Below the pieces are notes generated by a model. That model did no database searches. It worked only from the letters and a program-made list of their open reading frames with translations, and had not been told where the DNA came from. Source: Candidatus Doudnabacteria bacterium (GTDB taxonomy: Bacteria > Patescibacteriota > Doudnabacteria > UBA920). From it: DNA of 64,000 nucleotides. Of this stretch, positions 4,426 to 62,316 are shown piece after piece. Within the stretch, counting starts at the first letter, position 1; every line of letters starts with the position of its first letter. The stretch is from the NCBI GenBank assembly GCA_963788395.1, contig CAWBGV010000020.1, positions 69,195-133,194 of the forward strand. The letters are read 5' to 3'. A program made the position numbers and the translations under genes.

Positions 4426-7395
4426 ATGGAAAAGCTTCGCCAGCAGCAAAAACAAATTCAACTCTCCGATCCTTTACTGGAAGGGTTGAACAAAGCCCAG
4501 ACCGAGGCCGTTAACCATACCTACGGCCCGCTGTTAATTGTGGCCGGAGCGGGAACCGGAAAAACTACCGTGATTACCCGCCGGATTGCTCGGCTGGTCG
4601 GTCAAAAATTAGCCAAACTCGATGAAATTGCGGCCTTAACTTTTACCGAAAAAGCTGCCGGCGAGATGCAGGAACGCTTAGACTTACTCCTGCCCATGGG
4701 TTATGTAGATACCTGGATTTGTACTTTTCATGGATTTTGCGAACGAATTTTAAAAACTCACGGCCTGGATATTGGCCTGCCGGGAGACTTTTCGATTTTA
4801 AGCGATACCCAACAGTGGATTTTTATTTACAAACATCTCGGCCAGTTTCAGCTGGATTATTACCGCCCCATGGGCAACCCCGCTAAATTTATTAGCGCCT
4901 TAATTAGCCATTTTAGCCGCTTAAAAGATGAGGTAATTAGCCCCGCGGACTATTTAAAGTACGCCGAAGAGTTGAAATTGTCTTTGGATAGTGCTGAGGG
5001 AATAAAGAAAAGCGAAGAGGGGGCAACCGTGCTGGATGTTGCCGAAATCTCCCGAATCGAAGAACTCTCCAATGCCTACCATACCTATCAAAAACTCTTG
5101 CTCAATAACAATTTTCTGGACTTTGGCGATCTTATTAATTATACTTTAGAACTTTTTAAAAAACGTCCCAAGCTTTTAAACTATTATCAGGAAAAGTTTA
5201 AATTTTTAATGGTGGATGAGTTTCAGGATACCAATTTTGCCCAGTATGAATTGGTGAAGCTGTTGTCGGGAAATCAAAACAATCTAACAGTAGTTGGCGA
5301 TGACGACCAATCTATTTATAAATTTCGCGGCGCCAGCGTTTCCAATATCTTAAAATTTAAAGAAGATTACCCCAACTTTAAACAAATCACTTTAGTCGAA
5401 AATTATCGGAGCTCCCAAAATATTTTAGACTTAGCCTATCGGTTTATCCAGGCTAACAATCCCGACCGCCTGGAAATCAAATTGGCTATTAACAAGCGTC
5501 TTAAAGCCCAGGCCGGCTCGCCCGCAGGGGTGATCGAGGTTGTTGAAGCCGAAGATCTCAACGGCGAGCTCAACGCCGTCACCAAAAAAATTTGCCAACT
5601 GCGCGAAGCCGAAGACTGTTCCTGGAATGATTTTGCGATTTTACTTCGGGCCAACTCTGCCGCCGAAGCGCTTTTGCCGTGCCTGCAGGCCGCGGAAATT
5701 CCTTACACCTTCGTTGCGAACCGGGGACTATACAAAAAACCAATTATCATAGACCTCATTTCTTACCTGCGACTACTGGACAATTGGCACGATTCCAACA
5801 GCCTGTATAAAGTCCTGACTCTGCAAAAATTCAGTTTTGACCATAATGATTTGGCTGCTTTACTGCGTTATGGCCACAAAAAAACTTTATCGCTTTACGA
5901 AACTCTATCCGAAGCCCCGCATGTGCCCGGAATTTCGGCAGCCAGTCTGCAAAAAATTTCTCTTTTAACCGCCACGCTCCAGCGCCACACCCAAGCCAAT
6001 AAACAGCACCACGCGGTGGAAATTTTAGTTCAAATTATTAAAGATTTGGGGATTGAAGAAAAAGTTAAAGAACAAACCGCCCAGGCGGCGGAAAACCGCG
6101 AATTAATTGAACAGTTCTATAAAAAAATTGAGGCTTTTGAGCAGCAAAATGAAGATAAAAGCCTGCATAATTTTTTAGCGAATCTGGATTTAGAGTTCCA
6201 AGCGGGCAATGATGGCGAAATTAAATTCAATCCGGATTTAGGGCCGGAAAGCCTGAAAGTCTTAACTATCCACGGCTCCAAAGGTTTGGAATTTAAGTAC
6301 GTTTTTCTGATCAACATGGTTGATCAGCGTTTTCCCACACGGGAAAAATCCGACCCGATTGAAATCCCCGAGCCCTTGGTTAAAGATATATTGCCGGAAG
6401 GGGATTACCACCTTCAGGAAGAGCGCCGCTTATTTTATGTAGCTGTAACCCGGGCCAAGAGCCATTTGTATTTTAGCTGGGCCAAAGATTACGGCGGAGC
6501 TCGAGCCAAGAAACCTTCGGCGTTTTTGGTCGAAGCCGAGCTTGTGCCGAGCGAAAAAATCAATAAAGCCACGGGCCGGGTTGTCTTTGACCGCCAAACA
6601 AAGCCCGGCGGGAAAATTATTTACGACCCGCCGACCCAATTTTCCTATTCCCAGTTAAATGACTTTGAAAATTGTCCGCTAAAATACAAATACCAGCACT
6701 ATCTTAAGTTGCCGGTGGAAGGTTCGTGCCATTTAAGTTTTGGCCAAACTATACACAAGGTGTTTGAGGAATATTTAAAACTATATAAGACCAACCTGGA
6801 CCTGCCGCAGCAGGATCTGTTCGGGGGTAAGCCCGAAGTTACTCTGCCGGCATTTAAATTTCTCGAGCAGCTCTACCAAAAGTGCTGGGTCGATGACTGG
6901 TATGAAGACAAAGAACAAAAACAACAGTACCGCGTGTTGGGCAAAAAACTTCTGACGACTTTTTACGATTCGGTAAGCCAACAGCCGTTTCATCCTAAAT
7001 ACATAGAGCAATTTTTTAAGTTGCGGCTAAAAAGTTATACGTTTGTGGGCAAAATTGACCGGGCCGACGCGCGGGCAAGCGGGATTGCGATTTTTGATTA
7101 CAAAACCGGCAAACAGCCCAAAAAAAATGACAAGAAAGATTTAGATCAACTCCACATTTACCAGTGGGCCGCCCAGGAATTTTTAAAGGAAACCGTGGTT
7201 GGGTTAACGTATTGGTTCTTGCAAGATAATGCTTTTGTGGAAGAGCCGGTAGCTGCTGCCGATAAAATCAGCGCGCTAAAGGAAAATTTGTTGACTAGAA
7301 TAGAAAGAATTGTCTATGTAACCCAGTATGACCTGTTTAAGGAAGAGCACAAAAAAAGCCGAGACCACAATTGCGAATTCGAACATCTTGAGTAG
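4426..7395 (+). CDS. UvrD/PcrA-type SF1 helicase fused to a C-terminal PD-(D/E)XK (RecB/AddB-like) nuclease
   Basis: Walker A GAGTGKT, then DEFQDTN, VGDDDQSIYKFRGA, VENYRS and TIHGSKGLEF. The C-terminal part has CPLKYKYQHYL…GKIDRAD…IFDYKTGK. Confidence 0.85.
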   Translation: MEKLRQQQKQIQLSDPLLEGLNKAQTEAVNHTYGPLLIVAGAGTGKTTVITRRIARLVGQKLAKLDEIAALTFTEKAAGEMQERLDLLLPMGYVDTWICTFHGFCERILKTHGLDIGLPGDFSILSDTQQWIFIYKHLGQFQLDYYRPMGNPAKFISALISHFSRLKDEVISPADYLKYAEELKLSLDSAEGIKKSEEGATVLDVAEISRIEELSNAYHTYQKLLLNNNFLDFGDLINYTLELFKKRPKLLNYYQEKFKFLMVDEFQDTNFAQYELVKLLSGNQNNLTVVGDDDQSIYKFRGASVSNILKFKEDYPNFKQITLVENYRSSQNILDLAYRFIQANNPDRLEIKLAINKRLKAQAGSPAGVIEVVEAEDLNGELNAVTKKICQLREAEDCSWNDFAILLRANSAAEALLPCLQAAEIPYTFVANRGLYKKPIIIDLISYLRLLDNWHDSNSLYKVLTLQKFSFDHNDLAALLRYGHKKTLSLYETLSEAPHVPGISAASLQKISLLTATLQRHTQANKQHHAVEILVQIIKDLGIEEKVKEQTAQAAENRELIEQFYKKIEAFEQQNEDKSLHNFLANLDLEFQAGNDGEIKFNPDLGPESLKVLTIHGSKGLEFKYVFLINMVDQRFPTREKSDPIEIPEPLVKDILPEGDYHLQEERRLFYVAVTRAKSHLYFSWAKDYGGARAKKPSAFLVEAELVPSEKINKATGRVVFDRQTKPGGKIIYDPPTQFSYSQLNDFENCPLKYKYQHYLKLPVEGSCHLSFGQTIHKVFEEYLKLYKTNLDLPQQDLFGGKPEVTLPAFKFLEQLYQKCWVDDWYEDKEQKQQYRVLGKKLLTTFYDSVSQQPFHPKYIEQFFKLRLKSYTFVGKIDRADARASGIAIFDYKTGKQPKKNDKKDLDQLHIYQWAAQEFLKETVVGLTYWFLQDNAFVEEPVAAADKISALKENLLTRIERIVYVTQYDLFKEEHKKSRDHNCEFEHLE

Positions 7396-9570: not shown

Positions 9571-11116
9571 ATGCCCACAACTTCCTTTCCCGGCATTATT
9601 GCCGCCAAAGTTACCAAAGTAGAAAAACACCCAAATGCCGACCGGCTGCGGGTGGTAGAATTGTCTGTTGGCCACGACCAAACGGTATTTCCGGTGGTCT
9701 GCGGCGCTTTTAATTTTGGAGTGGGGGACATGGTAGTATTAGCGCTACCAGGCGCCCATATTCCCCACAACATTCACTCTGAGCAACACGAACCCTTTAC
9801 CCTGGAGAAAGCCACCATCCGCGGCATAGAAAGCCAGGGCATGATCTGCGCCGGCTTTGAACTGGGACTCCAGGCCGAGCCAGGAGATAAACCGGAAATT
9901 TTATTGCTTAAACCGGAAGTCGTGCCGGGTCAGGAATTTACCCCGGACATGATTCAACCGGAACAAAAAAAGACTATGCAGACTATTATTATTGACACCG
10001 CCGAAGAACAACAACTAAAACAAAAATTAGCACAAAGGACCGATACCGAGGCCCAGCGCATGCGGCGATACTTGAGTACTGCCGGATTTGTCGCGAACCC
10101 CAGGCAGCCCGATTGCAGAAATAGTCAAAAGAATTTTAGCCAGTCCCTATTTTGCCGGTCTGGACGTCATTCAAACTCCGGAAATCGTTCCGGCCAGCGT
10201 CAGTTTTGACTTGTTCGACTTTCCGGCCGATCATCCCGCCCGCAGCAAGTCCGACACCTATTATGTTGACGATGACCATATTTTGCGCACCCACACCACC
10301 GTAATGTGGTACTACTACTTACAAGATGCCAGCGTCAAAAAGCGCATTACTGAACACCAGCCTGTGGGTTCCTTTAGTTTCGGCAAAGTCTATCGGAAAG
10401 ATGAGATTGACCGCAAGCACATGAATGTCTTCCACCAAATTGACGGCTGGTATTTAGCGCCTAAAAGCCAAAAAGTTATTACTCAAACCGATTTAGAAAA
10501 AGCTCTCGGCAACATTGCCAAAGCCGTGTTCGGGCCCAACGCCAAGTATCGCCTCAATAAGGACACATTCCCTTATACCGATCCTTCGCTGGAAATGGAA
10601 GTGGATATTAACGGCAAGTGGGTGGAGGTAGTAGGATGCGGAGTGGTTAAAGGGAGCGTTGTGGAAAAATTAGGGGTCAATCCCGACGATTACACCGGCT
10701 GGGCCTTTGGTTTTGGGTTGGAGCGTTTGGCCATCAGCAGCATGGATCTGCCGGATATTCGTTTGTTGTGGTCAACTGATCCGCGCGTCACTAAACAGTT
10801 GCAGCTTGGCCATAAGTTCGTTGAGGTCAGTAAATTTCCGCCGATAACCCGGGATATTTCTTTTATCGTTAATAAAGATTTTATCCCCAATAATTATTTT
10901 GATTTAATCCGCGATATTGGCGGGGATTTAATTGAGCAGGTCGAGCTGTTGGATAAGTACGAAAATCCCGAAAAGTTCGGTCCGGATAAAATCAGCTACA
11001 CCTACCGCGTCGTCTATCGCAGCAATGAACGAACTTTACGGACCGAAGAAGTGGATCCTTTGCAGAACAAATTATACGAACAAACCAAGGATATCTACAA
11101 GGCAGAATTGCGATAA
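9571..11116 (+). CDS. Single-chain phenylalanyl-tRNA synthetase-like protein (PheT-type tRNA-binding domain + PheS core + FDX-ACB domain); one frameshift near 10080
   Basis: N-terminal part: KVEKHPNADRLRVVELSVG…VCGAFNFGVGDMVVLALPGA…IRGIESQGMICA. Core: FPADHPAR, FGKVYRKDEIDRKHMNVFHQIDG, GWAFGFGLERLA. C-terminal part: KFPPITRDISFIV…YFDLIRDIGGDLIEQVELLDKY…YTYRVVYRSNERTL. The ORFs 9571-10209 and 10088-11116 are in different frames. Confidence 0.8.
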
Positions 11117-11261: not shown

Positions 11262-13320
11262 ATGGCTAAACAAGAAAACAGAAAAACCGACCGGCGGTTA
11301 TACCGCTGAAAACATTACCGTCCTGGAAGGACTCGAACCGGTGCGCAAGCGCCCAGGTATGTATATTGGTTCAACCTCGGAAACCGGTTTGCATCATTTG
11401 GTCTGGGAAGTGGTAGACAACTCGGTTGACGAAGCCATGGCCGGGCACGCCAATAGAATTGTAGTAACTCTGCAAAAAGACGGCGGCGTCAGCGTAATTG
11501 ATAACGGCCGCGGGATACCAGTCGATACGGTCAAGGCTACAAAAAAATCAGCACTAGAGACTGTCTTGACGGTCCTCCACGCTGGAGGTAAATTTGGCGG
11601 CGATGCTTCGGGCTATAAAGTTTCAGGCGGTCTTCATGGTGTTGGTGTTTCGGTGGTAAATGCGCTTTCGACGAATCTCATTGCCCAAGTTAAACGCGAT
11701 GGCAAGGTCTACGAACAGCGTTTTAAAATTGGCAAGCCCCAGGGCGCCGTTAAAGTCGTTGGAAAAGTCGATAAAAAAGATCCCGACCAAACGGGCACCA
11801 AAATTACTTTCTATCCCGACGCCTCTATTTTTGAAACTACGGAATTTAAGTTTAAGACGGTACTGGAGCACTTGCGCAGCCAGGCCTATTTGACCAAGGG
11901 GTTGCATTTTGTGATTACCGACGAAAATGCGGGCCTGACCTATCAATATTATTTTGAAGGCGGCGTGGTCAGTTATATTAAGCAGCTCAATCGCAACAAA
12001 AAAACCCGCAACCAGCCGATTTACATCAACAAAATGTTCGAAGGCGACATTATGGTGGAACTGGCCATTCAGTATACAGACGATTTTGACGAACGGATAT
12101 TGGCCTACGCTAATAATGAATACAACCCCGAAGGCGGCATGCATGTTACTGGTTTTCGATCCGCTTTAACTCGGGTGATCAATAACTACGCCATTAAAAA
12201 CGGTTATGTTAAAGAAAACGAAAAATTAACAGGTGAAGACATGCGCGAAGGTTTAGTAGCGGTCATCTCTGTTAAATTGCCCAATCCACAATTTGAAGGG
12301 CAAACCAAAGCCAAATTAGGTAATCCAGAAGTTCGGACCGCGGTAGAAGCCGTGGTAAACCAAGAAATGGAAGTTTTCTTGGAAGAGCATCCCAGCGATT
12401 CGTCCAAAATTATCGAAAAGGCTATTCTGGCTTCCAAAGCTCGTTTGGCGGCCCGGGCGGCGCGCGATAGTGTTATCCGTAAAGGCGTCTTAGAAGGACT
12501 GGCATTGCCCGGCAAACTGGCCGACTGTTCGGAATCTGATCCCTCCAAATGTGAACTCTACATAGTTGAGGGTGATAGCGCCGGCGGCAGCGCCAAGCAA
12601 GGCCGCGATCGCCGTTTTCAGGCTATTTTGCCGCTCCGGGGTAAAATTTTAAACGTCGAGCGGGCGCGTTTAGACAAAATGCTATCGTCGCAGGAAATTA
12701 AAAATCTGGTCATCGCCTTTGGCACGGGGATAGGGGAATTGTATGATGTTTCCAAACTCCGCTACCACCGAGTTATTATCATGACCGATGCCGATGTAGA
12801 TGGTGCGCACATTCGGACCCTGCTTTTAACGTTATTCTATCGCTACTTCCCGGACATTATCAAAGGCGGCCATCTTTACATTGCCCAACCACCGCTGTTC
12901 CGCGTCCAGGTCGGCAAAGAATTCCAGTATGCGTTTTCCGATGAAGAACGGGATGAAATCTTAAAAGACCTGGTAAGCGAAGCTAAGGCCAAGAAAAAAA
13001 CCAAGACAGATGCGAAAAAAACTACCGATGAAACTGAAAATGCTGAAATTGCCGGCGATATAGACCCGGAAGCAGCCACCTCTTCGGCCATGGACGGAAT
13101 AAAATACACGATTCAACGCTACAAAGGTTTGGGCGAAATGAATCCGGGTCAATTGTGGGAGACCACCATGGACCCGCAAAACCGGGTCATGCTTCAAGTC
13201 AACATCAAAGACGCCGAAAAAGTCAGCGAAATTTTTGAGGTCCTGATGGGAGACGAAGTAGCGCCCAGAAAACGGTTTATCACCACTCACGCCAAGACGG
13301 TCAAAAACTTAGATATTTGA
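11262..13320 (+). CDS. gyrB: DNA gyrase subunit B (frameshift near 11285 in an A-run)
   Basis: ATG at 11262 (MAKQENRK…) shifts frame into …GGYTAENITVLEGLEPVRKRPGMYIGS. GHKL ATPase, TOPRIM (EGDSAGG) and C-terminal motifs are all present. Confidence 0.9.
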
Positions 13321-15470: not shown

Positions 15471-16780
15471 ATGCTCGACATTAAATACATCCGCGACAAT
15501 CCGGATAAAATCAAAAACGCAGTCAAACTTAAGCGCATCGATCTTGATGTTGACCAGCTTTTAGATGTAGACAGCAAGCGTCGCGATCTTTTGACGGAAC
15601 TGGAAGGCCTGCAGGCGGCCAAAAATAAATTCTCCAAAGAAATTGCTTCTTTGAGCCCGGAAGAAAAAAAGACCAAATTGGTAGAAATGAAAGAAGTCGA
15701 CGAACGCGCGACCACCGTCAAAAATGAGCTACAAAAAGTGACGTCGGAATACGACGAATTAATGTACAAAGTCCCGACTGTCCCGGCAGAAGACACCCCC
15801 ATAGGCAAAGATGGCAGCGAAAACGTCGAGGTGGAAAAATGGGGAACAATTCCCAGCTTTGACTTTAAAATTAAAGACCACATCCAACTGGGGAAGGATT
15901 TAGACATTTTAGACTTAGAACGCGGAGCCAAGGTCGGCGGCTACCGGGGTTATTACGTAAAAAACGACGGCGTGTTGTTAATGATGGGTTTTTTGTTTTA
16001 TGCCATCAAAAAAATGGTAGAAAAAGGCTACTCCCCAATGATCCCGCCGACGTTGGTAAAAGAATTTGCGCTATTTGGCAGCGGCTACTTTAAAGGGAGC
16101 GAGTATAATCCCGATACCGACGAAATTTACATGGTAGCCAATCGCGACAAAGACCAGAGCGGTCAAACCAGCGGCGAGAAAAAATTTCTGGTAGGAACGG
16201 CTGAACCGTCCATTTTAGCTTATTATGCCGACGAAGTCCTGGATGAATCCCAGCTGCCCATCCGCAATTCCGGCTACAGCCAATGCTACCGCAGCGAGAT
16301 TGGCAGTTACGGCAAAGACACCAAAGGCATTTACCGCGTCCACGAATTTATGAAGATCGAGCAAGTCGTGCTGGCGCCGGCCGATCTTGAGGTGGCCGAC
16401 CAAATGCAGCAGGAGATGCTTTCTATCTCCAAAGAACTGCATCGCGACCTGGGCCTGCCGTTTCGGGTCTTGCGGATTTGCAGCGGCGACCTGGGCCCCG
16501 GCAAATATAAACAATTCGACATGGAAGCCTGGATCCCTTCGCGCGAAAGCTACGGCGAAACCGGTTCATCTTCCAACTTCTTAGACTGGCAATACCGCCG
16601 GCTAACGCAAAATACAAAACTCCCGGAGGCGAGAGAAAGTATGTCTACATGCTCAACAACACCGCCCTGCCTTCTCCGCGGATTTTTATCGCGATATTAG
16701 AAAACTACCAGCAGAAGGATGGAAGTGTAGTGGTGCCGGAAGTCTTGAGGCCGTATGTGGGAAAAGACGTTATTAGATAA
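15471..16780 (+). CDS. serS: Seryl-tRNA synthetase (frameshift near 16605)
   Basis: MLDIKYIRDNPD… coiled-coil arm plus class II core (…YRSEIGSYGKDTKGIYRVHEF…). The C-terminal part …NTALPSPRIFIAILENYQQKDGSVVVPEVLRPYVGKDVIR is read in the +1 frame. Confidence 0.9.
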
Positions 16781-18063: not shown

Positions 18064-19014
18064 ATGTTCAACAAAACCAAAAGAAAAATCGATCCTAAAA
18101 TCCGTTTCCAGCAAGCTAATTTTAAACAGCAGCTGCAGACGGCCAGGGGCTATAAACGAACGGCGCGCAAAAGCTTGGGCCGCGGTTCTCACAGTGGCAA
18201 AGGCATGCCGAGCTTAAAAACCTGGGTAATAACTTTTACCAGCTTAATATTTTTGGCTGGAATGGTTTATATAGTTTTTTTGCCGAATATTTTTTATATC
18301 CAACACATAACCGTAACCGGCCTGCCCGCTGAGCAACAAACCGAAGCGCAAAATATTATCACTACCTATTTGGGACAAAATAGTTTGATTAACCACCAAA
18401 ATTTGTTGTTTCTTTCTAAGGCTCGCCTGACCCAAACTCTGTTAAGGGAAGATTTTAATGTCTATCAAGTCAGCGCCATCCACAAACGCTTTCCCAACAG
18501 CCTGGGACCTGGCGCTTGAGCCGCGGATTACCCAGTTTCTTTTTTCGACTCCGTTGGCTCAGTACTTTGTTTCAACGATGGTTATATTTTGGGCGAAGCC
18601 GCTACGCCCACGCCCTCCGGCCTGATTAAAATTAATGTAGACTCGACTCCGGATATAGCTATTAAGATAATTATTTTTCTTTGGGTTTTTGAACGAACTC
18701 AAAATGCTCTCTACGGAATTTCTAACGCCGGCATCACGCTCGGCCATCATTTTGAACTGCCGGACCTCGGCGCGAAGATTAAAAACGCATCGACCGATGG
18801 TTATTATATTCGAAATCACTATGACTCAATACCTCGAGCGGCCTACGGCCATGTCAACGAGCTGGTCAGTCAAATGGATGACAGTCAGAAAAAAAATCTG
18901 TATTATATAGACAGGCGCTCTAGCGACCGGCCTACACTGCGACCGCAGCGCCCCTGCGCCGCCAACATCCCAAATCCCAACAGTAGCCATATATACGGCA
19001 AGCTCGACGCCTAA
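18064..19014 (+). CDS. FtsQ/DivIB-like cell-division protein (POTRA), frameshifted
   Basis: MFNKTKRK…, a TM helix (WVITFTSLIFLAGMVYIVF), and a POTRA-like segment IQHITVTGL…LLFLSKARLTQTLL. It continues in the frame of ORF 18589-19014. Confidence 0.5.
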
Positions 19015-19911: not shown

Positions 19912-21520
19912 TTAATTTACCTTGTACTCAGTTACATAAATCGTCGTTCCCAAATACGGCCTGACGTCGAAAAATTTTGGGTGTAAATAGCCACCCAATC
20001 GCGGGGGTCTTGGGCTGGTTAGAGCCAAAAAGCGTACGTCCACATAATCCATTCAGTATCGCCGGTATGAGCGTACTGGGCAAACGTTGGGGCCAGGTCG
20101 CTGTTGGAAAGCAGAGCCGAGCCTTCTACCGAGGACATCTCACTCAGATCATCGCGGCCGCCGGTATAGAGCAGCGGGGGAGTGGAAATAGGATAATAGG
20201 TCAGTTGTAGTATTTGTAATTAAAAAATTCAAATGAGGTGCCTAAAAAGACATGTTGGCCAGGCTCTACGTTCGCTGCCAAGTATTTGGCCGTGCCATTC
20301 ATACCCGGCTTGGTGGCTATATCTAAACTTTTCCAATAGTTGGCAAAGGCGACCAAATTAGTCAAAACATAAATAACGAACAGTCCGGTCCCAATCCACT
20401 TTATTCTTATTTCCGCCAGCCACGCCGCCAAAGCGAAGGAATAAAATACGGCCGCGAATAAAAAGTAACGGTCTTCGTAAACAGAAGTCCCATGGCACTG
20501 CAAACCTTGAGCGGTATGAGCGCAGGCCAGGCTTTTTAAATAAAAACCGACCGATCCTACAAACGGCAAGATAATAGCTAAGACGATTAGCCACTTTTCA
20601 AATTTTTGAGTTTTGCGAATAAACTGCCAGAGAAAAAATATGGTAAATAAGGTTACAATAATCAGTAAGACTTGAGTCGAGGTTTTTGTTGTGTCGTCAG
20701 CAAATCCCAAAAGAATTGACCAGAGGGTAGAAGGGATGCTCCACCAGGTCATATCGGGAATCCAATAGCTTTGGCCGACGGATTTTAGTTGGGAGAGAAA
20801 AATTTTAAACCAGGGCAGGAAGGCCACAAGAGATAAGAAACAAGAAAATAAAAAATAGAAGTATCTTTTATAGTTGGTTCGATAGTGGGCAATACAGTAA
20901 AATAATCCGTACAGCATCAATGCCGCGGCGGTGAACAATAAATAGTAGTGGGTTAAAATGATGATCGCAATACAAACTATAAATCCAAGATAGTTCCAAA
21001 GAAAACTCTTTTTTAAATTAATGTCCTGGGGCAGGTTGGGCATGTTGAGTTTTTGGTCTTCGTAAAACAGCTTTTGCTGGCGCAGAGCCTTCACCAAAAA
21101 ATAGGCGGCCATAATGGCAAAAAAAGCGCCAAAAGTGTACATTCTGGCCTCGGTGACATACTGGAGCTCAAAAGGGTTCAAAGCCACCAAAACCGCGGCC
21201 CAGAGGGCCATTTTTTGACTTTGGAAGGTCTCTTTTACAAACAAATAGGCCGCAGGAATGGTCAAAACCCCAAATAGCACCGAAAAACCGCGCAGCGACC
21301 ACATTTTGTCCCCAAAAATATAATGCCAAAAGCGCAAAGCAATATAGTACATTGGCGGATGCACATCCATAGCCAACCGCCGAAACATCTCGCCCCAAGA
21401 GTAGCGAATCATCAGCGCGCTAAATGCTTCGTCGTGCCACAATGAAATATCGGTATTATGATAAACCCGCAACGCAATCCCAACCAAAATAATTAACCAA
21501 AGAGGCCAAAGTTTTTTCAT
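19912..21520 (-). CDS. GT39/PMT_2 (ArnT-like) membrane glycosyltransferase, copy 1 (at least 2 C-terminal frameshifts)
   Basis: MKKLWPLWLIILVGIALRVYH…SLWHDEAFSA… polytopic protein. The C-terminal part (…PLLYTGGRDDLSE…FDVRPYLGTTIYVTEYKVN) continues past the track stop at 20201. The first 14 codons of the track ORF lie inside the repeat element. Confidence 0.7.
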
Positions 21521-21530
21521 AAGTGTTTTG

Positions 21531-21647
21531 CAATCTCCTCCCCGCCTGCCGTCACTATTCATGTTAGTAGGTTTAGGCGGAGAACCTACGTCTATCCACT
21601 CTAAATGTTATGTGCATGGCGGGCAGGCTATAATAGGAGGAGATTAG
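21531..21647 (+). repeat. Structured ~105-117-nt repeat element, copy A
   Basis: Outer stem AATCTCCTCC/GGAGGAGATT, inner hairpin GTAGGTT…AACCTAC. About 90% identical (by eye) over 105 nt to the reverse complement of 62065-62169. Confidence 0.75.
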
Positions 21648-21675: not shown

Positions 21676-23420
21676 TTACTTTGCTTCATACACCGCCAAC
21701 ACCACTTCGCCGAACTGGTTGCGGGTGGACAGGGTTAAATAGGCTTCGGGGTGGTGTTGGGTAAATTTTTGTGTGTCAAAAATCGTACTTTCCGTAAACA
21801 CAACCGCCTGCCCAGATTTTAGCGGCGGCAACTGCCACGAACTGGCCGGGTCGACATCTTGATAGGGGACATTACAAGGGTCGTTAAAATTTCCCTTTGC
21901 GTTACTGGTCAAAAAGTCCGTAGTTTGCACAGAATATGGGTCTAGCACCAAAAAAGTAGTGCTCTTAGTCGAGCCTTGGCCGGCGGCCAAAGAATCCTCA
22001 CAACGGCTAACCAAATATTCGCTGACCGGCGTTAAATCCGCGCGAAACGAGTAAAAGTATTCCGGCGAATTAGCCGCGTAGACAAAATACAAAAAATACG
22101 TTTGCAGCGTCAGCGCAACCACAAAGCAGGCGCACAAAGTTAAAAAAGCCGCGCGAACCAAGCGCTGGCCCCGGGGCCAGTTGGTGTGCAAGCGTAAATG
22201 CAGTTTATAAAGATAAAAACAAAAATAATAAATCGCCACGGCCGAAATAATAAATACCGGCGGAATAGTTCCGGCGCTCCGCAGCCCGTGCGGAATACTT
22301 TCAGCCGTGCTAATTTCCGGAATCAGCATGCCCCAAAACCAACCCGTCAGCACATAATATTTCCAGTAGCCCGAACGCTTGTTCGGCGCAAAAAAATACC
22401 AAATCCCAAACAGCGAAATTACAATCAAACCCACCCCAAAGAATGGACTAACCAAAGGCGAGACCAGGGGGTAGCCCGAAATATTTTGCCGCCAGTTCAA
22501 ATCCCCGTGCGTAAAGAAACCCAGGACCGCAGTCTTGGTCACCTCGCCCAAAACACTCACCACTACTCCCAGCGGCGGCCGGGAGCTTAATTGCTGGCCA
22601 TCAACGGTATATAACGTTTGATTAAAAATACTCACTTGCCCGCTTCGGCCAATGAAAAAGTCAAAATTATGGTAAAAATAATCCGCGATCGGGAAAACCA
22701 CAATCACAAACATTATTGCGCACAACACCGCCAATTTCCAATAGTCTCGAACCGTCTGTTTAAACTGATGGTACTTAATTGTAGCTAACAATGGCCACAA
22801 AGTAATCATCAACAAAATCGGCGCCATAATCCGGTAAGCAATGTAGGTATAAAAACCCAGGGCAAAAGCAGCGCCGGTCAAGGCCGCGAACCACATCTTG
22901 GTTTTTTTAGTTTGCGATTGGTAGGTGCGCAGGAAAAAATACAGCGTCAGTGAACCGAACAGGGGAGTCAGATTGGCGCGCAGGGCCGTTCGCGAGAGTA
23001 CCACGTACCAACTCGAAACCGCCATCAAAAACATGGCCAACAGCGCAATAATTTTGGCCCGCCTGCGGCGGAATTCAAAATCTTCATCCTCCTTCCCGCC
23101 CATCAAAAATAAACGGTAGGTCACAAAATAGACCATAATCACGCTGAGCACGCCAATCAGCGCCGAGACTATATGCAATTGCCATTGGCCCTTGCCGAAC
23201 AGCGAGACACTGGCCCATTCCATGTAAAAAACAGGGCCTCACGTCCGTTACCCCGCTGGTAAAACGGCTGCAAGTCGCCCTGTTGCATCAAATTAACATC
23301 TAACCCATTCGCTGCCTCGTCCGGATACAAACCACCCGGCATGGTTGTAATTTGGTAAAACCGAAAAAAAATCGCTACCAGAATAATACCCACAAACAGA
23401 CCCTTTTGAAATTTGGTCAT
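21676..23420 (-). CDS. GT39/PMT_2 (ArnT-like) membrane glycosyltransferase, copy 2 (frameshift near 23220)
   Basis: The N-terminal part MTKFQKGLFVGIILVAIFFRFYQITTMPGGLYPDEAANG… (23169-23420) joins the polytopic ORF 21676-23223. Confidence 0.7.
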
Positions 23421-29891: not shown

Positions 29892-29917
29892 ATAAAAAAC
29901 CCGCTTATTAGCGGGTT
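29892..29917 (-). terminator. Intrinsic terminator of cysS
   Basis: On the minus strand: AACCCGC-taataa-GCGGGTT followed by TTTTTAT. Confidence 0.7.
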
Positions 29918-31243
29918 AAATTTGCGTCTTCTTTTTAACTTTCTGGCCCTCAGGCGTGTCCATAATCTCGTAACCCAGCCTCTCAATACGGAGACGTACA
30001 TCGTCTGATTTTTTAAAATCTTTCTGCTGTTTGGCTTCAGCCCGCTCGGCCAGCAAGTTTTGAATTTCTTTAGGTATAACCAACTCCTGCTCGGGTTTAA
30101 AACCCAAAACAGATTCTATCTGCTCCCGAGTAGCATTACCCGCCCAAACTGCTGCCAAGGCCTGCGGCGCATTTAAGTTGTCATTGAGCGCAGCTTGGAA
30201 AGCCTGAGTATTTTGAGGCTCGTTTTGCCCAGACTTAAAGAGTTTTTCTCTAGCTACACGGGCCGCGGCCAGGGCTTCAAAAGTAAAATTTTGCTGGCTG
30301 GTAAAACTTGAACCTAAATAAAAATATCGCAAATCCTGACCCGAATAACCTTTGGCCTTGAGGCCGGTGATGGTGTAAAAATTATTAAAGCGTTTACCCA
30401 TGCGGCCGCCGTCAACCAATAAGTGTTCATTGTGGTACCAGTAATTGACGAATGGCCGGTAGATCGGCTGGCTTTGGGCGATTTCGTTGGTATGGTGAGG
30501 AAAAATCAAGTCAACGCCGCCGGTGTGAATAGTAGTCGGCTGACCTTTAAAAGCAAGATAATTAATGGCTGAACACTCAATGTGCCAACCGGGGCGGCCT
30601 TTGCCTAAAACCGGGTGGTCCCAAAAAATCTGCGCGTCCGCGGTGCTGTCCAGGCTTTCCATAGCGCGAAGTCGCTGAGATCGTCCTTTTCGTATTCATC
30701 AACTTTTACGCGGACGCCGATTTTTTTCCCTTCCAAAAATTTTTGACCAACCAGCACCCCATAATCACCAAAATCTTTTTGGTATGTATTTATAGAAAAA
30801 TAAGTGCTGCCGTCTGCGGCTGTATAAGCATACCCTTTGTCCAGTAACATCAAAATAAACTCCTGAATTTGGGGAATAACATCGGTAACCCGGTAAAAGC
30901 TAATATCATCTTTAATAATATTTACTTCGTCCAGGTCGGCCAAAAAGGCGTCCAAATAAAATTTGGTATACTCCCGCAAATTTTCCACCGTAGCGGTCTG
31001 TCCATATTTAGCAATCGTGCCTTTGATAGTTTTATCGTCGATATCGGTAATGTTCATAACCCAAACCGGCCGATAGCCTTGGAATTTTAATGTCCGATAG
31101 AGCACATCGGCCATGACATAACTGCGCAAGTTACCTATGTGCGCGTAGTTATAAACGGTCGGCCCGCACGTGTAGAGATGCAAACGGTTCCCCAAGGGAA
31201 TGTCTTCGACTTTTTTTGAGAATGTGTTATAAAGTTTCAGCAT
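29916..31243 (-). CDS. cysS: Cysteinyl-tRNA synthetase (frameshift near 30630)
   Basis: MLKLYNTFSKK…LYTCGPTVYNYAHIGNLRSY (HIGH motif) in ORF 30605-31243. WHIECSA… in ORF 29916-30662. Confidence 0.88.
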
Positions 31244-37832: not shown

Positions 37833-37869
37833 AACCGCTTTGACCATTCTGGCTCGAAGCGGTTTTTTT
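37833..37869 (+). terminator. Intrinsic terminator
   Basis: AACCGCTT…AAGCGGTT followed by TTTTT. Confidence 0.65.
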
Positions 37870-40800
37870 ATGTTATATCCACCATCGAAATTTCCGGAAG
37901 GGAGCGCAGCGATTTTAGCAGTTCGTTATTCACGCGCACGCTCGACTGAGTTTTAATGGTTTTAGCTGCCGGACCGCTCCCCACCGAAAGATAGACCTGG
38001 GCGTTGCCTGGAAAACTATGAAGGATATCTTTAATCGTATTCAGCGCGCTCATATTGGCCAAGGACTGCATGTGCAAAATTACACTCTTATTTTTTTCCA
38101 TTTCCGAAAGGGCCATTGTGTACAGTTCATCGTTTGGTAATTCTTTAATTTCCTCGGCAATCAACTTAAACTCCTCGTCTTTATCAGAAAGCCGGCCGGA
38201 GACTTGGACAATTTTGTCTGCTGCCAAATAGGGGAGAGCCGCTTCCATAGCCTTAGGAAATACCAAAACTTCAACACTGCCAGTCAAATCTTGCAGCGTA
38301 AAAAAAGCCATTGGGTCGTTTTTTTTGGTCATCGTCCGCTTGAGCCGCGAAATTATTCCGCCCATAATGACATGAGCGCCCAATTGATCCAATTTTAAAT
38401 CTTTCACGCAGGTAAATCCCTGCAGCACCTGGCGGTAATTATCGAGCGGATGAGCTGATACGTAAAAGCCTAAAATTTCTTTTTCCCACAGCAATTTTTC
38501 ATCTTTGGTCGACGGTGCAACATCGCGCAATTTTAACTTTCCGACTTGCAGCGACTTTCCAAACAAAGAATTCTGGCCGCTGTTTTCATCTTTAAAATGC
38601 TCGCGGGTAAAATCCAAAATCTCTTCCGTATTGGCCAACAGTTTGCCCCGCTCACCATAGGCGTCCAGGGCGCCCGCTTTCACCAAAGCTTCCCAAGATT
38701 TTTTATTAAGATTTTTCGTATGGGCACGAATGGAGAAAATCTTCTATAGATGAAAAGGGGGAAGATGTTTTTTTCACATCTGCCACCTTCCCCCTAAGCT
38801 CTATTATCTTGGCCACTACATCGCTTCCTAAATTTTTAATGGCATTCAATCCAAACCGGATGGTCTTCTCATCTACAACCGTAAAGTCGCCGAGCGATTC
38901 GTTAATGTCGGGCGGCAAAACTTGGATGCCCAAATTCCCGCATTCTTCCACGGCGGCGTAAATTTTATCCTCGTCGCCGCTTTCCGCGGTCATCACCGCC
39001 GCCATAAATTCCACCGGATAATTAGCCTTCATAAAGGCAGTCTGATAGCTTACCACCGCGTAAGACGCGGAATGAGATTTATTAAACCCGTAGGCCGCGA
39101 ACGGCTCGATCCAGGCCCAGACCTCCTGAGCTTTTTCGTAGCCCCAGCCGGAGGTCTTCATGCAACCGTCGATAAATTTCACCTTCTGTTTAGCCATTTC
39201 TTCCGGGATCTTTTTGCCCACAGCTTTGCGGAATTTATCCACCTCTTCCCAGGTATAACCGGCCAAGTCATGGGCAATCGTCAACAAATCGTCCTGATAA
39301 ACCAACACTCCATAAGTCCGGCTTAAAATCCGCTCCAGCGCGGGATCTAAATATTTAATCAATTTAGGATTATTCTTGCGGCTAATATAATCAGGAATAA
39401 ACTGCATTGGTCCCGGACGATACAGCGCGATCATGGCCATAACATCAAAGATCGTGTTCGGCTGCAACTCTTTCAAGTACCGAGTCATACCCGAAGATCC
39501 CATTTGGAACACGCCGAACGTCAGCCCGCGCGACAGCAATTCAAAAGTTTTAGGATCGGGATGGGGGAGATTGTAAATATCTATGGTTACCCCATGGCGG
39601 TGTTCGGCAATTTTTACCGCCCGTTCTAAAATAGATAGATTACGGATCCCCAAAAGGTCCATTTTGACCACGCCGATGGCTTTACTGTTGGCGTTGACGT
39701 CCAAAGCGTACATATCGTATTGGGTAATAATCCGCTCGCCGTCCGGTTCTTTTTGCAGGGGCATATAAGTAGTCAGCGGCTCCGGCGTAATAACAATTCC
39801 GGCCGCGTGTACCGAAGCATGGCGGGCGCCACCTTCTAATTTTTTCGCAATCGTTAAGATCCGATTAGTATCGGGATCGCGGGTATAAATTTCTTTTAGC
39901 TCAGGATTTAACTCTAAAGCTTTATCCAGCGTCATGTGGAATCCCTGTTTACCAATCGGGATCATCTTGGCGATCTGATCGCACTTACTGTAAGGCACGG
40001 CCAGGGCGCGGCCCACATCTCGGACGGCAGCTCGGGCCATCATTGTCCCAAACGTAATAATTTGGGCGACTTTGTCCTTGCCGTAGCGGGAGGTAATGTA
40101 TTCAATGGCCTCATCCCGCCGGTCATCGGCGATATCTAGGTCAATATCGGGAGGCGTGGGACGATGCATGGTTAAAAACCGTTCAAACGGCAACTCATAA
40201 TACAGCGGATCCACGTTGGTAATCCCCAAAATTTTTCCCACAATACTGCCGGCCGCGCTGCCGCGAGTGTTGGTGATCGCGCCAATATTATGCGCGCCCT
40301 GGACTAAATCGGCCACCATTAAAAAGTAGGTGTCAAAACCCTTTTTGCAAATAATATTTAATTCATAATCTATCCGCTCTAAAATTTCCTTGGGGACAAC
40401 GCCGTCTTTCCCGTACAGCGGTACCGCCTTTTCGTGGACCAGATTTTTAAGATAGTCTTGGGAATTCAAGCCGGACGGAATTTCCACACGCGGAAAATAC
40501 CGCTGGTCGAGCGCGATTTCCAGCTGGCAGCGTTCAGCAATTTTTTGAGTATTAGCTACTGCTTCCGGCAAATCGCTAAACGACTCGGCCATTTGCTCGG
40601 GAGACTTAAGCGATAGATCAAACCCCCGCAAATCCATGCGATCCGGATCCTGGACGGTTTTGCCGGTGCCAATACACAGCAAAACGTCCTGAGCTTCTTT
40701 ATCTTCGGGGTAGATATAGTGGCAATCGGCCGTGGCCACAATTGGCAAATGGTTTTTTTTGGCCAGTTCGATTAATTTTTGATTTAACGCCTGCTCGCGT

Positions 40801-41354
40801 TCTTGCCACTCCGCGGCCTGGGCGTTCCGCTGGAGCTCTATAAATAGACGGTCAGGACCAAAGATTGCCAGATATTTTTCCAAAACTTTTTGGGCTTCGG
40901 CGGCCGGTTTGCCGACCGCGGCTTTGGCGATTTCTCCCCGCTGGCAGCCAGAAAGACAAATTAATCCCGAGCCATATTGCTGCAAAACTTCTAAGTCGAT
41001 TCTTGGTTTATAATAAAACCCTTCCAGATGAGCAATCGTCGTCAGCTGCATCAAATTCTGGTAGCCTTCCAGGTTTTCTGCCAATAAGGTTAAATGAAAA
41101 TAATCGGCGTCAACTTTACCGTCCTTGTCGCGCAGGCTTCGCGGCGCGACATAGGCTTCGAGCCCGATAATTGGTCGAATGCCGCTTTCCAGGCATCTAC
41201 TATAAAACTCAATCGTGCCGTACATAACCCCATGGTCGGTAAGTGCCAGGGTTTGCATGCCCAATTCTTTAACACGTTCAACCAGCGGATCTATTTTCGA
41301 TAGTCCGTCCAACAAAGAAAAATGGCTGTGGCAATGAAGATGGGTAAATTGCAT
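37868..41354 (-). CDS. dnaE: DNA polymerase III alpha subunit DnaE (frameshift near 38695)
   Basis: PHP domain (FTHLHCHSHFSLLDG), polymerase core, and OB-fold C-terminal part in ORF 37868-38686. Confidence 0.92.
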
Positions 41355-50630: not shown

Positions 50631-52107
50631 TAATACAACTTAAAGGGATTTTTCCTTGTTTAGAATGGGCGGCGGCTATCGCACGCTCGTTGTGAATGTG
50701 GGAGAATTCAATTTTCTGATTTTTTAAATAGGGGTGCGAGCCGAAATTTTTTGGGCAAAGTATTTTTTGGGGTGCAGTTCGGCGTATTGCGTGATTTCGC
50801 CCAATGTTTTTGCGTCTTTCACCCATTTTTGAGCGGTTCGAGCCAAGCGACAGACCTCTGTCGAAAATCGGCTATTTTCTCCTCCAACGACTTCTTGCAG
50901 GAGAGAAGATTTGCCTTCTCGCAGAGGTATGTTTCTGCTCAATATCTTGGTCAAAATAGCGATAAGAAGGCGTTGGAGTTTTGTCCTCAATAGCCAAAAC
51001 TTCATCTTTCATCGCTTGGCACGCGGCTAGTGGATATATTGGGCGTCTGCTTTCTCATCCTTGTCCGCCATAGTTTTATAGCTCCGCCCCATCGTGTGGC
51101 AGGACGAATTCTTTGAGGGTATCTGAAAGTGGCTGACCAGCTCCTCGCCCCTGATATAGGGCTGGGAGCAAACCGTATTCTTTTTGGTACAGCGATAATA
51201 ATATAATGGTGGGTTGCCGTTTACTTGCCGCTTTAGCTTATTCTCGGCGGTTATGCCCGGCCACATTCGCCACACTTAAAGAGCCCGCACAAAGGCTGTG
51301 GCTCGTTCTTGGGCTTCTATGGGGCTTGCCTCGGTCTTTAAGCACAGCTCTGCACTTGATCATAGAGCTTTTTCGTGATAATGGGCTTGTGTTGCCCTTG
51401 ATATATTCCCCGTTATAGCGGAAGTGGCCGTAGTAAAAAGGATTGGAGAGAATAACCGCCACTCGATCTCGCGTTATGGATTTTCCGCCTCTGTGTAAAG
51501 ATCTCGTTCTTCGCAAAAAGCGACGATATATCTTCCAAACGGGAATTGCCTTGAACATAAAGTTCATAGGCCGTCTTTACGATTTTTGCCCGCTTGCGAT
51601 CAACGACTATGCTCTTTATCCGGCTGTCATTCAGATAGCCAGTGGGCGCTTGGGTAGGACACTCCCCGCGCCGGACTTTCTCGTAAAGGCCACGTTTGGT
51701 GTTCGCACTTAAGTCCAAAATAAACTGATTAGCCATACCGAGTTCAACGGCCATAACAAGGACGTTATCGGTAGGATAAAGCTCCGGTCGTGGGTTTGGA
51801 TGTGCTGGATAACACCCTTTTGCAAGAACCAGCTAATCTGCCCGCCATCTATGGGGTTGCGGGCGAGGCGATCCAGTTTCCAGCAAACAATGCCTTGCGC
51901 GTCGCCCCGTTCTATGCTTAAAAGCATTTCGTTGAACACGGGACGGCCGGGACGTTTGGCCGACTGCTTCTCGATGAACTCTTGGACTATATTAAGTCCT
52001 TCCTGTTTGGCCAATGCCCGCAAAACAGCAAGCTGGTCTTCAATAGACCGGACTTGCTTGTCTTCAACGTCTGTGGATTTGCGGGCGTAGAGGAAGTAGT
52101 TAATCAT
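50631..52107 (-). CDS. Large serine recombinase (resolvase + recombinase + zinc-ribbon domains), at least 4 frameshifts
   Basis: YARKSTDVEDKQVRSIEDQ…LDRLARN (catalytic Ser domain, 51709-52107). Recombinase domain (51413-51754). ILSNPFYYGHFRYNGEY and CGECGRAITAE…YYYRCTKK zinc ribbon (51027-51567). C-terminal fragments extend to the tRNA. Confidence 0.75.
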
Positions 52108-52394: not shown

Positions 52395-54860
52395 ATGCAA
52401 AAAGAGGCGAAAGCAAGAATCAAAATAAATAGTCTGCTCCAAGAATCTGGCTGGAGATTTTTTGATGATAATTCAGGGACAAAAAATATTGAAGTTGAGG
52501 GAGATGTAAAAATGGAAAGTCTTGGAGATAATTTTGAGCACGTCAAAAAAGGTTTTATTGATTACCTGCTATTGGATACAAAAGGCTTCCCTTTGGCCGT
52601 TCTTGAAGCAAAGTCACAGAGCAAAGATCCTTTGGATGGAAAATACCAGGCGGAAAATTATGCTAAGGCCAAACGGTGCCGCTTTGTAATTTTAAGCAAT
52701 GGCGATGTTCATTACTTTTGGGATCTGAACCAAAGCGCGGAAAAAATCATTCTAAAATTGCCCACCCAAAAAGACTTAACTAAACTCCTTCAAGCTTTGT
52801 CAGCAATGCCGTTGGGAGGTATAGAAGTTAAAAATGACTGGATTGTTCAAAGTCAGGGTGCGGTTGCCAATGAAGACAAAAAATATTTGCGGGATTACCA
52901 GTTAGACGCAATAAAAACAATTTCCAATAATTTTGATAATGGGGGTAGGCGTTTTCTTTTGGAAATGGCAACTGGAACTGGTAAAACTCTTCTAGCCGCG
53001 GCGCTTATCAAACTTTTTCTAAAAACCGGCAATGCTTCCAGAATCTTATTTTTAGTTGACCGGATTGAGCTGGCTGATCAGGCAAACCAAAATATAAGCT
53101 CTTACCTAAAAGAATATAATATTGGAATTTTTAAAGAGAATAAGGAACAGGCTTTGCAGAATCAGGTTGTCATTGCCACCATTCAAAGCCTGTCGTATAA
53201 CCAAAACTACCTAAAATTTTTTTCTCAATTTGATTTCGACCTCCTTATTTCAGACGAAGCCCACCGCAGTATTTATGGAAATAATCGGGCGATTTTTGAA
53301 TACTTTGAAGCCGCTAAAGTCGGCCTAACCGCAACGCCAAAGATTACCTCAAAGGCATAGACGAGAAAAAACTGGTTGACACCGACCCAGGAAACTGGAA
53401 AAAAGAATTTTGCAGGACACCTATAAAACTTTCGGCTGTGAATCCGGCGAGCCCACGTTCCGTTTTGATTTAAAAGAGGCAGTATCACATAAGCCCCCTT
53501 ATTTAGTAAATCCGGTTATTTTTGATAAACGAACCGAAAAGACGGATCAAATGCTTTCCGAGCAGGGTTGGACAGACGCTTTCGTGGATGAAATTACCGG
53601 CCAGCAGATAGAGGAAACTTTTAAAATCCGACAGTTAGAACGGAAGGTATTTTCTGAAAGCCTAAACCGATTATTGGTGGAAGAGTTTTTGAATACGGCA
53701 AAGAAGGATCCCGTAACCAAAGAAGTAGGGAAAACTATAATTTATTGTATTTCTCAAAATCATGCTTCCAAAATCCAACGTTTACTAAATGAAGCGGCCG
53801 ATAAACTATGGCCTCAAAAATATTCTGGGCTCAATGGGGTTTTCGCGCGCCAGATTACCAGCAATGTCGTGGGCAGCCAAGATTTAACTAAAAAATTCAG
53901 GAATAACCAATTAGGTAATACCAGAGTGGCCGTAACAGTCAATATGATGACCACCGGATATGATTGCACAGATCTTTTGAACGTAGTGCTAATGAAGCCA
54001 ATTTTTTCTGTAAGCGATTTTGTGCAAATAAAAGGCCGCGGCACGCGCCCACATAATTTTAAAAATGAGTTGACCGCCCAGACAATTGAAAAAGACAATT
54101 TTTATTTAATTGATTACTTTGCGGTATGTGAATATTTTGAAGAAAAATACGACTACAAAGAGCCGCTCCGTATACAGATTAATCAAAAAGAAATTTTAAC
54201 CAAAGGAGAGTCTGTTAGCAAAGAGTCTGCCGATTTGGATTATACAACGCCTGAAACTGATTCAGCGGCTAGCGGTACACAAAGTGAACTGCCAATTGCA
54301 GTAGCGCACGGCAACTATATTTATATAGGCACGGATTTTCTGGTTCGGGATAACAAAATAGAGATAGGCGAAGACTGTATGAAAGTAGACCGGGAAGCCT
54401 ATCGGAATCGTTTTGAAGAGTCCGTCAAAGAGCTCATGTCTTCCGACGCGGATTTTCTGGATGCCTTAAAACACGATGACGTGGATACAACGGAAAAAAT
54501 TGCCCAGGAAAAATTATTGGAAAAACCAAAATACTATTTTTCTTTGGAATCTTTACGCAAGGCTTACCAGTCCAGCAATGGTCTGGCGGATTTTCTAAAA
54601 AAGGCCGCCGGGTTAATAGAAAAATTGCCGGATAAATATGACCGCTTAAATCAGGGGTTTGAGGAGCTAAAATTGGTATAAATCCTCCATACCATACGAG
54701 AAACTTAACTATTACGAAAATATTTATTCCTGTTATTTAACTAGCCCGGAATATCGTTCCGCCGTTCGAGCAGGGTAAATACACGGTGCTTGACAACCAG
54801 ACGCTCGGCGGTAGTGTTCCTATCGGCAGAGTCAATAAAGAGGAAATAGAAAATATCTAA
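52395..54860 (+). CDS. hsdR: Type I restriction enzyme R subunit (HsdR-like; at least 3 frameshifts)
   Basis: N-terminal PD-(D/E)XK (IDYLLLD…LAVLEAKS). Helicase motifs LEMATGTGKT and SDEAHRS. LTATPK… continues at 53410-54681, and a short C-terminal tail runs to 54860. Confidence 0.75.
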
Positions 54861-58771: not shown

Positions 58772-59108
58772 AAAGTTCCTTTTTGCTTACTGATTATGGC
58801 AAGCAAAAAACTCTGGAACGTTTTGGCGGTCAAGGGTGTAGCATAGCGGCGATTTATGCCCAGGCGTGAAACGGAATAAAGAAGTCCGCCCCTTTACGGC
58901 TAAAAACCCGCCTTGGGCAAGGTCAGGTTGAGGTGGCCAAGGTTAGCAGTTTTGGACAAAGTCAGTTCGCACCTTGTTGTACGGGCACTCCAGAATCAAA
59001 TTCTGTTTAACCTCCCGCTTAAGTGGGAGGTTTTTGTATAAAAAATGGGCGGCAAACTGATGGCTTGCTACCCAGAGATGTTTTTGATTAGTTGAATTCA
59101 GACTTAGT

Positions 59109-59931: not shown

Positions 59932-60019
59932 GGGCAGGTAGCGAAGCGGTCAAACGCGACTGACTGTAAATCAGTTGGCTTTATGCCTTCATAGGTTCGA
60001 ATCCTATCCTGCCCACCAC
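59932..60019 (+). tRNA. tRNA-Tyr(GUA), class II (long variable arm)
   Basis: GGGCAGG…CCTGCCC-A-CCA, anticodon arm ACTGA-CTGTAAA-TCAGT, variable arm TGGCTTTATGCCTTCA. Confidence 0.88.
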
Positions 60020-60135
60020 GGGTCAAGTTACCCTCACTCCGCCTCGGGCGGATCGGGGGCCCCGAAAGGGAACAACTTAGTTATTACCAGTGCTTGGTTT
60101 GCCAATTTTCCCTTTGGGAAAATTTGTTGGGTTTA
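60020..60135 (+). repeat. tRNA-trailer repeat, copy 2 (related to 302-425)
   Basis: CCACGGGTCAA, CCTCACT, CCGCCTCGGGCGGA, GGGGCCCC, and the A/T-tract hairpin CCAATTTTCCCTTTGGGAAAATTTG (60102-60126). Confidence 0.5.
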
Positions 60136-62000: not shown

Positions 62001-62064
62001 CTAATGTCTCTGGGCTTACCCCCCTGACCTTGCCCCGACTGCTATTGTCGCGTCAAGCTCGTCC

Positions 62065-62169: not shown

Positions 62170-62239
62170 TGGCTAAAAATGATTGCTTTAATTTTTAGCC
62201 GGGGTGGTAAGCCCAGCTCTAGCTTTTTTCCGCGGTCTA

Positions 62240-62248: not shown

Positions 62249-62316
62249 ACCAAAAGTTGGCAGCCTGACCCGCCGGCTTAGCTTCCGCCTCCGTCTGACT
62301 TCGGCGGACAGGCATC

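Follow-up and report, generated by a model that had tools for sequence, protein, structure and literature searches.

Correia elements of Neisseria and RUP elements of Streptococcus pneumoniae are bacterial MITEs of about 100-155 bp. They are non-coding intergenic sequences that occur in either orientation, have inverted termini, fold into a long hairpin, may lie in transcribed spacers and carry promoter-like and SD-like strings. They are also marked by TA duplications, are present in tens to hundreds of copies, and have known or inferred mobilisers of the IS630/Tc1 type. ERIC/IRU and REP/BIME sequences are imperfect palindromes of intergenic, often co-transcribed spacers, with no target duplication and with changes that preserve pairing. 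REPs are 20-40 nt long, carry a GTAG-type motif, go with RAYT (Y1) transposases and have a high copy number, and ERIC is 127 nt long and is conserved across genera. The omega RNAs of TnpB/IscB and the bridge RNA of IS110 are structured, non-coding and possibly multi-copy, and they lie beside, or overlap, a nuclease or recombinase gene. CPR/Patescibacteria have small genomes, in which repeats and mobile DNA are usually said to be scarce, and our search of the literature on CPR repeats or MITEs found nothing relevant.

In this paper we describe a previously undescribed two-copy hairpin repeat in a Doudnabacteria-like genome. The window, that is, the whole 64-kb stretch of DNA that was analysed, has its nearest protein matches in entries annotated as Candidatus Doudnabacteria or Patescibacteria, and the closest relatives reach merely 76-78% protein identity. 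Within the window, BLASTN and a repeat search aligned copy A (21537-21643) with the reverse complement of copy B (62062-62168) over 107 nt without a gap; neither copy is assigned to a strand. There are 13 mismatches and no indels (87.9% identity, E=1.8e-34), or 14 differences, 12 of them transitions, when a covarying pair that flanks the alignment is counted. A previous reading of these letters, made without database searches (the sequence-only reading), had reported a repeated structured element in two inverted copies 40 kb apart, and this is confirmed; it was also right that the copies differ, but its count by eye of about 11 differences is too low. The copies lie on opposite strands, 40.4 kb apart, and are the sole long repeat within the window, where the next-longest inverted repeat is 35 nt at 74%. 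No identical block shared by the copies exceeds 18 nt, and even when three mismatches are allowed the conserved blocks of 17 and 18 nt are confined to these two sites in the window; the flanks of the two copies are unrelated. One reading frame is open across the element, with 73% amino-acid identity between copies and replacements accumulating; a protein search with this frame, meant to catch spurious ORFs over other copies, found no homologue.

With moderate confidence, we take the element to be a dispersed palindromic DNA repeat of the MITE/REP-like kind that is lineage-specific, non-coding and non-autonomous. A small repeat, selfish or neutral, is the most likely identity, rather than a conserved RNA gene. 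Like Correia and RUP elements it is about 100 nt long, non-coding and intergenic, with inverted termini, a long hairpin, placement in either orientation and possibly in a transcribed spacer, and promoter-like and SD-like strings; it is unlike them in that it has no TA duplication, no transposase in the window and two known copies. With ERIC/IRU and REP/BIME it shares the imperfect palindrome, the intergenic and often co-transcribed kind of site, the lack of a target duplication and the pair-preserving changes. However, at 107 nt it is much longer than a REP and no RAYT gene was seen in the window, and, unlike ERIC, it has no relatives found outside one genome. Omega and bridge RNAs resemble it in being structured, non-coding and possibly multi-copy, but the neighbours of the two copies are GT39 glycosyltransferase genes, a small basic ORF and tRNA genes. 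There is no TnpB, IscB or IS110 gene nearby, and the Rfam IS605-orfB and HEARO models do not match the element; an earlier suggestion of a guide-type RNA derived from a transposon end has no support.

The palindrome of copy A reaches from 21532 to 21645 (AATCTCCTCC...GGAGGAGATT), and the hairpin of copy B runs from 62064 to 62169, its covarying outer C:G pair included. Predicted folding energies are -48.9 (plus strand) and -43.8 (minus strand) kcal/mol for copy A, with z = -5.4 and -5.1 against shuffled controls, and -42.8 (plus) and -43.9 (minus) kcal/mol for copy B, with z = -2.7 and -3.5. Stability is near-equal on the two strands of either copy, and no strand is clearly preferred. All folds computed contain an outer CCTCC/GGAGG stem and a GCCTGCC/GGCAGGC stem, in agreement with the long hairpin and the two stems proposed from the letters. 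In copy A the left arm CCTCC-CC-GCCTGCC (21537-21550, no strand assigned) has as its partners GGCAGGC (21622-21628) and GGAGG (21636-21640), and the asymmetric internal loop TATAATA (21629-21635; TATTATA is the other form) lies between the two stems. Terminal inverted repeats are present, the CCTCCCCGCCTGCC of one end being paired with the GGCAGGC...GGAGG of the opposite end, and the whole element, not its ends alone, is a hairpin. The palindrome of copy A gains five further pairs outward (AATCT/AGATT), and that of copy B gains one pair only.

The inner part of the hairpin is variable. In copy A this region (21566-21606, no strand assigned) can form two mutually exclusive inner helices and holds 6 of the 14 differences, among them G-C/A-U and C-G/U-A double changes. 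A competing inner helix TTTAG-GTGGA/TCCGC-CTAAA, with a G-C to A-U double change, is predicted on the strand that is minus for copy A and plus for copy B (A-minus/B-plus). An internal GTAGGTT/AACCTAC stem had been proposed from the letters; it is possible, yet it is absent from all MFE and consensus folds, and the GTAG/CTAC of the element is confined to this helix. The G-U that the stem was said to tolerate applies on the opposite strand only, and the helix competes with the predicted inner one.

The consensus fold of the A-minus/B-plus strand comprises 34 pairs, and 68 of 68 cells are still paired. Three pairs are altered on both sides (U-A/C-G, G-C/A-U and C-G/U-A), two are altered on one side via G-U, and none is broken; the T:A to C:G double change of the outer stem, already noticed in the sequence-only reading, is real in the folds of both copies. 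These changes also suit a functional structured RNA, in the form of small-RNA paralogues or of a cis hairpin that masks GGAGG against the upstream CCTCC and so controls the downstream gene, a reading that we consider unlikely. When each copy was threaded on the MFE structure of the other, copy B was accommodated by the minus-strand fold of copy A with no broken pair (P=0.005), and a structure-free test of the stability retained despite the 14 changes gave P=0.03-0.25. However, the other three of the four reference/strand choices for threading were non-significant (P=0.10, 0.25 and 0.52), and a column-shuffle control reached the observed covariation in 56 of 500 shuffles, with a floor of about 1/8 at n=2. 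Because there are just two sequences, the covariation between the copies cannot reach significance and lacks statistical support. Pairing is kept at some substitutions, but the weight that had been laid on compensatory changes is not borne out.

DNA palindromes maintained by hairpin-templated repair are likewise expected to show double changes that preserve pairing. Since this alternative stands beside the near-equal folding of the two strands, these data do not separate RNA-level from DNA-level selection. A structured RNA is further disfavoured because a promoter scan found no sigma-70-like promoter at either copy, neither strand of either copy has the T run of an intrinsic terminator after the hairpin, and Rfam has no match at the gathering threshold (best sub-threshold scores 11-18 bits, E>1). 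The regulatory RNA that had been listed as a candidate is weakly possible, but it has neither promoter and terminator nor, as the two sites below indicate, a conserved position. RNA-level devices, if this is what the copies are, would be of greater importance than a DNA repeat; nothing here requires an RNA role.

Copy A fills most of the 155-nt spacer between two GT39 genes, both on the minus strand, from the stop codon of the upstream GT39#2 gene (21676-23223) at 21676 to the start of the downstream GT39#1 gene at 21520-21518. The true ATG of GT39#1 (21518-21520, minus strand) was placed by orthologue alignment and Pfam, and the copy-A palindrome ends 11 nt before it. The public GT39#1 gene call (P0001, 453 aa) begins instead at an ATG inside copy A (21562); its 14-codon extension is spurious because the orthologues align from 21520-21518, and an earlier suspicion that copy A overlaps a spurious 5' extension of the GT39 ORF is thereby upheld. 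Elements of this sort produce such spurious 5' gene extensions, the public 453-aa GT39 call being an example, and they can change the expression of neighbouring genes. The flanks of copy A (...GCAATCT / AGATTAG...) are inverted and not direct. The adjacency of GT39#2 and GT39#1 is kept in L089, L091, L186, L187 and L189, and the element is absent upstream of the GT39#1 orthologues in 5 relatives.

The 3' arm of the hairpin reads GGGGAGG(A/G) on the A-minus/B-plus strand, and in copy B an ATG follows it after 9 nt, which would fit a hairpin that controls access to a Shine-Dalgarno site. At copy A, however, the GGAGG of this arm sits 16 nt upstream of the GT39#1 ATG, which, judged from the sequence, is too distant for a normal Shine-Dalgarno site, and no Shine-Dalgarno sequence was found upstream of the GT39#1 orthologues in relatives, which also do without the element. 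The ATG at copy B opens a 28-codon ORF that overlaps the tRNA promoter conserved in relatives and that has no equivalent at copy A. If the element is a DNA repeat, the hairpin at site A (-44 to -49 kcal/mol) would probably be transcribed within the GT39#2-GT39#1 message, ending 11 nt before the GT39#1 start, where it could make the upstream message more stable or get in the way of ribosome loading.

Two other hairpins were seen in GT39 loci of relatives. In L089 a perfect hairpin (TTGCCTGCC...GGCAGGCAA, 9790-9816) has the stem sequence of the element at a site syntenic with copy A; it falls within an open frame of about 100 codons that is protein-like but has no gene call, and we rejected it as a relative of the element and regard it as a probable coincidence. 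In L189 an AT-rich, unrelated hairpin (9920-9990) lies between the two GT39 genes.

Copy B comes after a small basic ORF and a hairpin that resembles a terminator, and it precedes the tRNA-Thr promoter (CTAGCTTTTTT...TATGGTAAAAT, 62219-62248, plus strand) by about 50 nt; this promoter was located by alignment with L193 and L191 and is kept in relatives. Because of this distance copy B is probably outside the tRNA transcript. Its flanks, read on the minus strand, are ...AGCCAC / GGACGAG.... A perfect 10-bp hairpin (GGCTAAAAAT...ATTTTTAGCC, 62171-62200, no strand assigned), evident from sequence and fold, abuts copy B as a separate feature and has no counterpart at copy A. The order tRNA-Tyr, AdoHcyase, small gene, tRNA-Thr, tRNA-Trp is kept in L193 and L191, and the element is absent from the tRNA-Thr region of both. 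Since the gene order of the relatives runs unbroken, and without the element, across both sites, copies A and B are simple insertions. Their contexts are of two kinds, an intercistronic spacer at site A versus a position upstream of a tRNA promoter at site B; between the terminator-like hairpin and the tRNA-Thr promoter, the hairpin of copy B would probably be silent.

The sequence-only reading had placed copy B next to a tRNA-Thr remnant, and the remnant is real. It is the 5' half of an ancestral tRNA-Thr(TGT) (62272-62335, plus strand) that matches the tRNA-Thr of relatives and is broken by a 29-nt hairpin (62284-62312). At about 100 nt from copy B, the remnant is context for that copy and does not belong to the repeat itself. 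An intact tRNA-Thr (62344-62419), whose acceptor and T arms differ, begins 7 nt past the remnant, and the two together look like a gene replacement or an integration scar.

Two inverted copies 40.4 kb apart, one of them near tRNA genes and a tRNA remnant, might be taken for the ends of a 40-kb mobile or invertible segment. This is extremely unlikely, and we rejected it because gene content and synteny contradict it: the interval holds the core genes DnaB, RecR, CysS, ThrS, DnaE, RodA, PrfA, S2 and Tsf, and the gene order of relatives crosses both copies, neither of which is at a breakpoint. The longest identical block of 18 nt is, moreover, below the usual need of homologous recombination, which normally requires a longer one.

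A covariance model built from copies A and B (R1) was used with filters off for the window and found just these two copies and no third; in eight syntenic loci from the nearest relatives it found nothing significant. BLAST against plasmid and phage collections gave no match, so there is no candidate IS end there, and a match to the terminal repeat of a known IS, which had been raised as an alternative, did not appear in these collections. Among viral contigs the exact blocks CATGTTAGTAGGTTTAG, GCATGGCGGGCAGGCTAT and TAGTAGGTTTAG...TCTAAATG gave chance or phage-gene matches only (BLAST-checked). An 18-mer scan of genome contigs gave 62 matches, all chance save a doubtful one in L066, and metagenome contigs gave 0 matches to the inner-hairpin pattern and 94 chance matches to the stem pattern, none of them BLAST-positive. 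The element matches no Rfam family, and the sequence-only reading had likewise recognised no known RNA family in it, but "repeat family" is not a supported term for it, as only two copies could be found in the window, the relatives' loci and the public collections. Two copies only, with no supported covariation, was the outcome that the sequence-only reading had named as refuting it, and this is essentially what we find in the window, the eight loci and the collections searched.

The same reading had recommended a search for flanking target-site duplications and a cognate transposase, and we found neither. No direct repeat is present at any plausible boundary of either copy, and no transposase, RAYT or Y1 gene is present among the ORFs of the 64-kb window, with no match to Y1_Tnp. 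The sole recombinase in the window is a resolvase fragment (51709-52107). Of the three candidates that had been put forward, a MITE-like repeat is the best fit, although target-site duplications are lacking; 2 copies were counted in the 64-kb window.

A dispersed DNA repeat would have landed at two unrelated intergenic sites of this Doudnabacteria-like genome, after which the copies would have diverged by about 12%. We infer that it was copied as DNA and that the hairpin itself was recognised or maintained, possibly by an enzyme, encoded elsewhere, that recognises hairpins, or by repair templated on the palindrome. Each of these routes would explain the pair-preserving double changes without an RNA function. 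With so few copies, and those so diverged, mobility cannot be demonstrated directly.

The doubtful match in L066, a Patescibacteria MAG, bears on the asymmetric loop. At 5782-5840 of this locus a sequence (TGCATGGCGGGCAGGCTATAAT) that matches 22 nt of the element without a difference stands behind a GCCCGCC/GGCGGGC hairpin and 7 nt before an ATG, and the site looks like a promoter for a leaderless gene. The element could by analogy be a portable promoter, with the TATAAT of the loop driving outward transcription, which we regard as very unlikely. The 22-nt identity and the hairpin (L066 5782-5828) speak for it, and R1 scores the site at 16.8 bits, its best match outside the window. However, L066 was picked by an 18-mer, so the independent evidence amounts to 4 extra bases and the hairpin. 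The window copies lack a -35 box (1 of 6 matches) and got no call from the promoter scan, copy B has TATTAT on that strand, and the transcripts would run antisense into the 3' end of a gene or into a terminator.

Hairpins also occur at other sites in relatives. In L188 a 107-nt near-perfect hairpin (4462-4567) lies beside a gene for a 96-aa GIY-YIG protein, in a spacer equivalent to that of copy A. Its arm polarity is opposite, with a purine-rich 5' arm, and for this reason it is not homologous to the element. GIY-YIG genes were seen in the spacers that match copies A and B, in L188 (4462-4950, 96 aa) and in L193 (2594-3000, 81 aa). The L188 gene beside the hairpin is flanked by CTCGCAATGAC repeats, and the L193 gene is flanked by a 14-nt duplication of the 5' end of tRNA-Trp; both may be homing-type cassettes. 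We considered the element as the hairpin partner of a GIY-YIG cassette and rejected this, as the window has no GIY-YIG gene and the polarity in L188 is opposite.

A GC-rich repeat of its own (model R2) is present in relative L091, with at least 4 copies within 21 kb and in both orientations: 11693-11829 and 12543-12708 on the plus strand, and 15676-15830 and 18694-18811 on the minus strand. A single further R2 match in L187/L188 (L187 7416-7578, minus strand) is at a syntenic spot shared with one of the L091 copies. The repeat is 130-165 nt long, consists of a closing stem and five hairpins, folds at about -80 kcal/mol on either strand, has seven covarying pairs among three copies, and has no match in Rfam. 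It looks more interesting than the two-copy element. The two are alike in their clade, in GC-rich CCTCC/GGAGG stems, in short spacers, in the use of both orientations and in strands that fold equally, and they differ in length and in the number of hairpins, with no statistical support for a relationship in sequence. Because L091 bears at least 4 copies of its own repeat in both orientations, lineage-specific hairpin repeats are a habit of the clade. For CPR/Patescibacteria this means that several lineages each have their own GC-rich hairpin repeats in short spacers.

These findings raise the question of a larger composite, of which the element would be a module or scar: one expanded hairpin of an L091-like repeat, or the leftover of a homing-type cassette. 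Copy B and its flank share three collinear blocks of 10-12 nt each (TCCCCTCCTAT, the GGAGGGTGGC-hairpin and GCCGGGGTGGTA) with L091 15685-15755. The 107-nt hairpin of L188 stands directly upstream of a GIY-YIG gene in the spacer of copy A, and the duplicated tRNA-Trp 5' end at the L193 cassette has a parallel in the tRNA-Thr 5' half duplicated near copy B. We nevertheless find a composite improbable. Blocks of 10-12 nt are at the level of chance in BLAST, R2 finds nothing in the window, and an nhmmer profile gives E=4.8 even with the interior of copy B excised; the L188 hairpin and the lack of a GIY-YIG gene count against a cassette as described, and the spacer of copy A has no room for extra modules. 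Membership of the element in the L091 five-hairpin family was accordingly rejected for want of statistical support from R2 and nhmmer, and the shared habit of the clade takes its place.

A broader proposal is that the element and the five-hairpin repeat of L091 and L187 are members of a clade-wide, undescribed class of modular structured elements, maintained for their fold and acting as RNAs. We think this decidedly unlikely. If true, these would be mobile structured RNAs, or regulators that sequester SD/anti-SD sequences, and not inert DNA repeats.

Several minor features of the window were recorded along the way. Its sole other non-coding CCTCC/GGAGG hairpin (CCTCCCGCTTAAGTGGGAGG, 59011-59030) is isolated and intergenic. 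A low-GC island (0.37-0.40) extends from 50.7 to 58.3 kb after a tRNA-Thr(GGT); in it lie an N-terminal piece of a serine recombinase and a UvrD-like fragment, together with a type I restriction-modification system that is itself fragmented. The DNA homology of GT39#1 runs about 290 nt beyond its stop codon, and adjacent split ORFs are seen for GT39#1, CysS, DnaE and hsdR (19913-21520, 29916-31243, 37868-41354 and 52395-54681); S2 and PrfA also look short. The split genes are either frameshift errors of a long-read assembly or else widespread pseudogenes. Short TCCGCCTC(..)GGCGGA hairpins recur beside tRNA genes (300-335, 60035-60060 and 62284-62312), and the intron-containing tRNA and tRNA-Tyr are each followed by a trailer, about 60 nt of which is 70% alike between the two (repeat D2, 277-340 vs 59994-60057). 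The start of the window apparently cuts this intron-containing tRNA gene: a group I intron (Rfam, 61.9 bits) at 23-233 stands directly before the 3' end of a tRNA, with its T arm and CCA at about 277-302.
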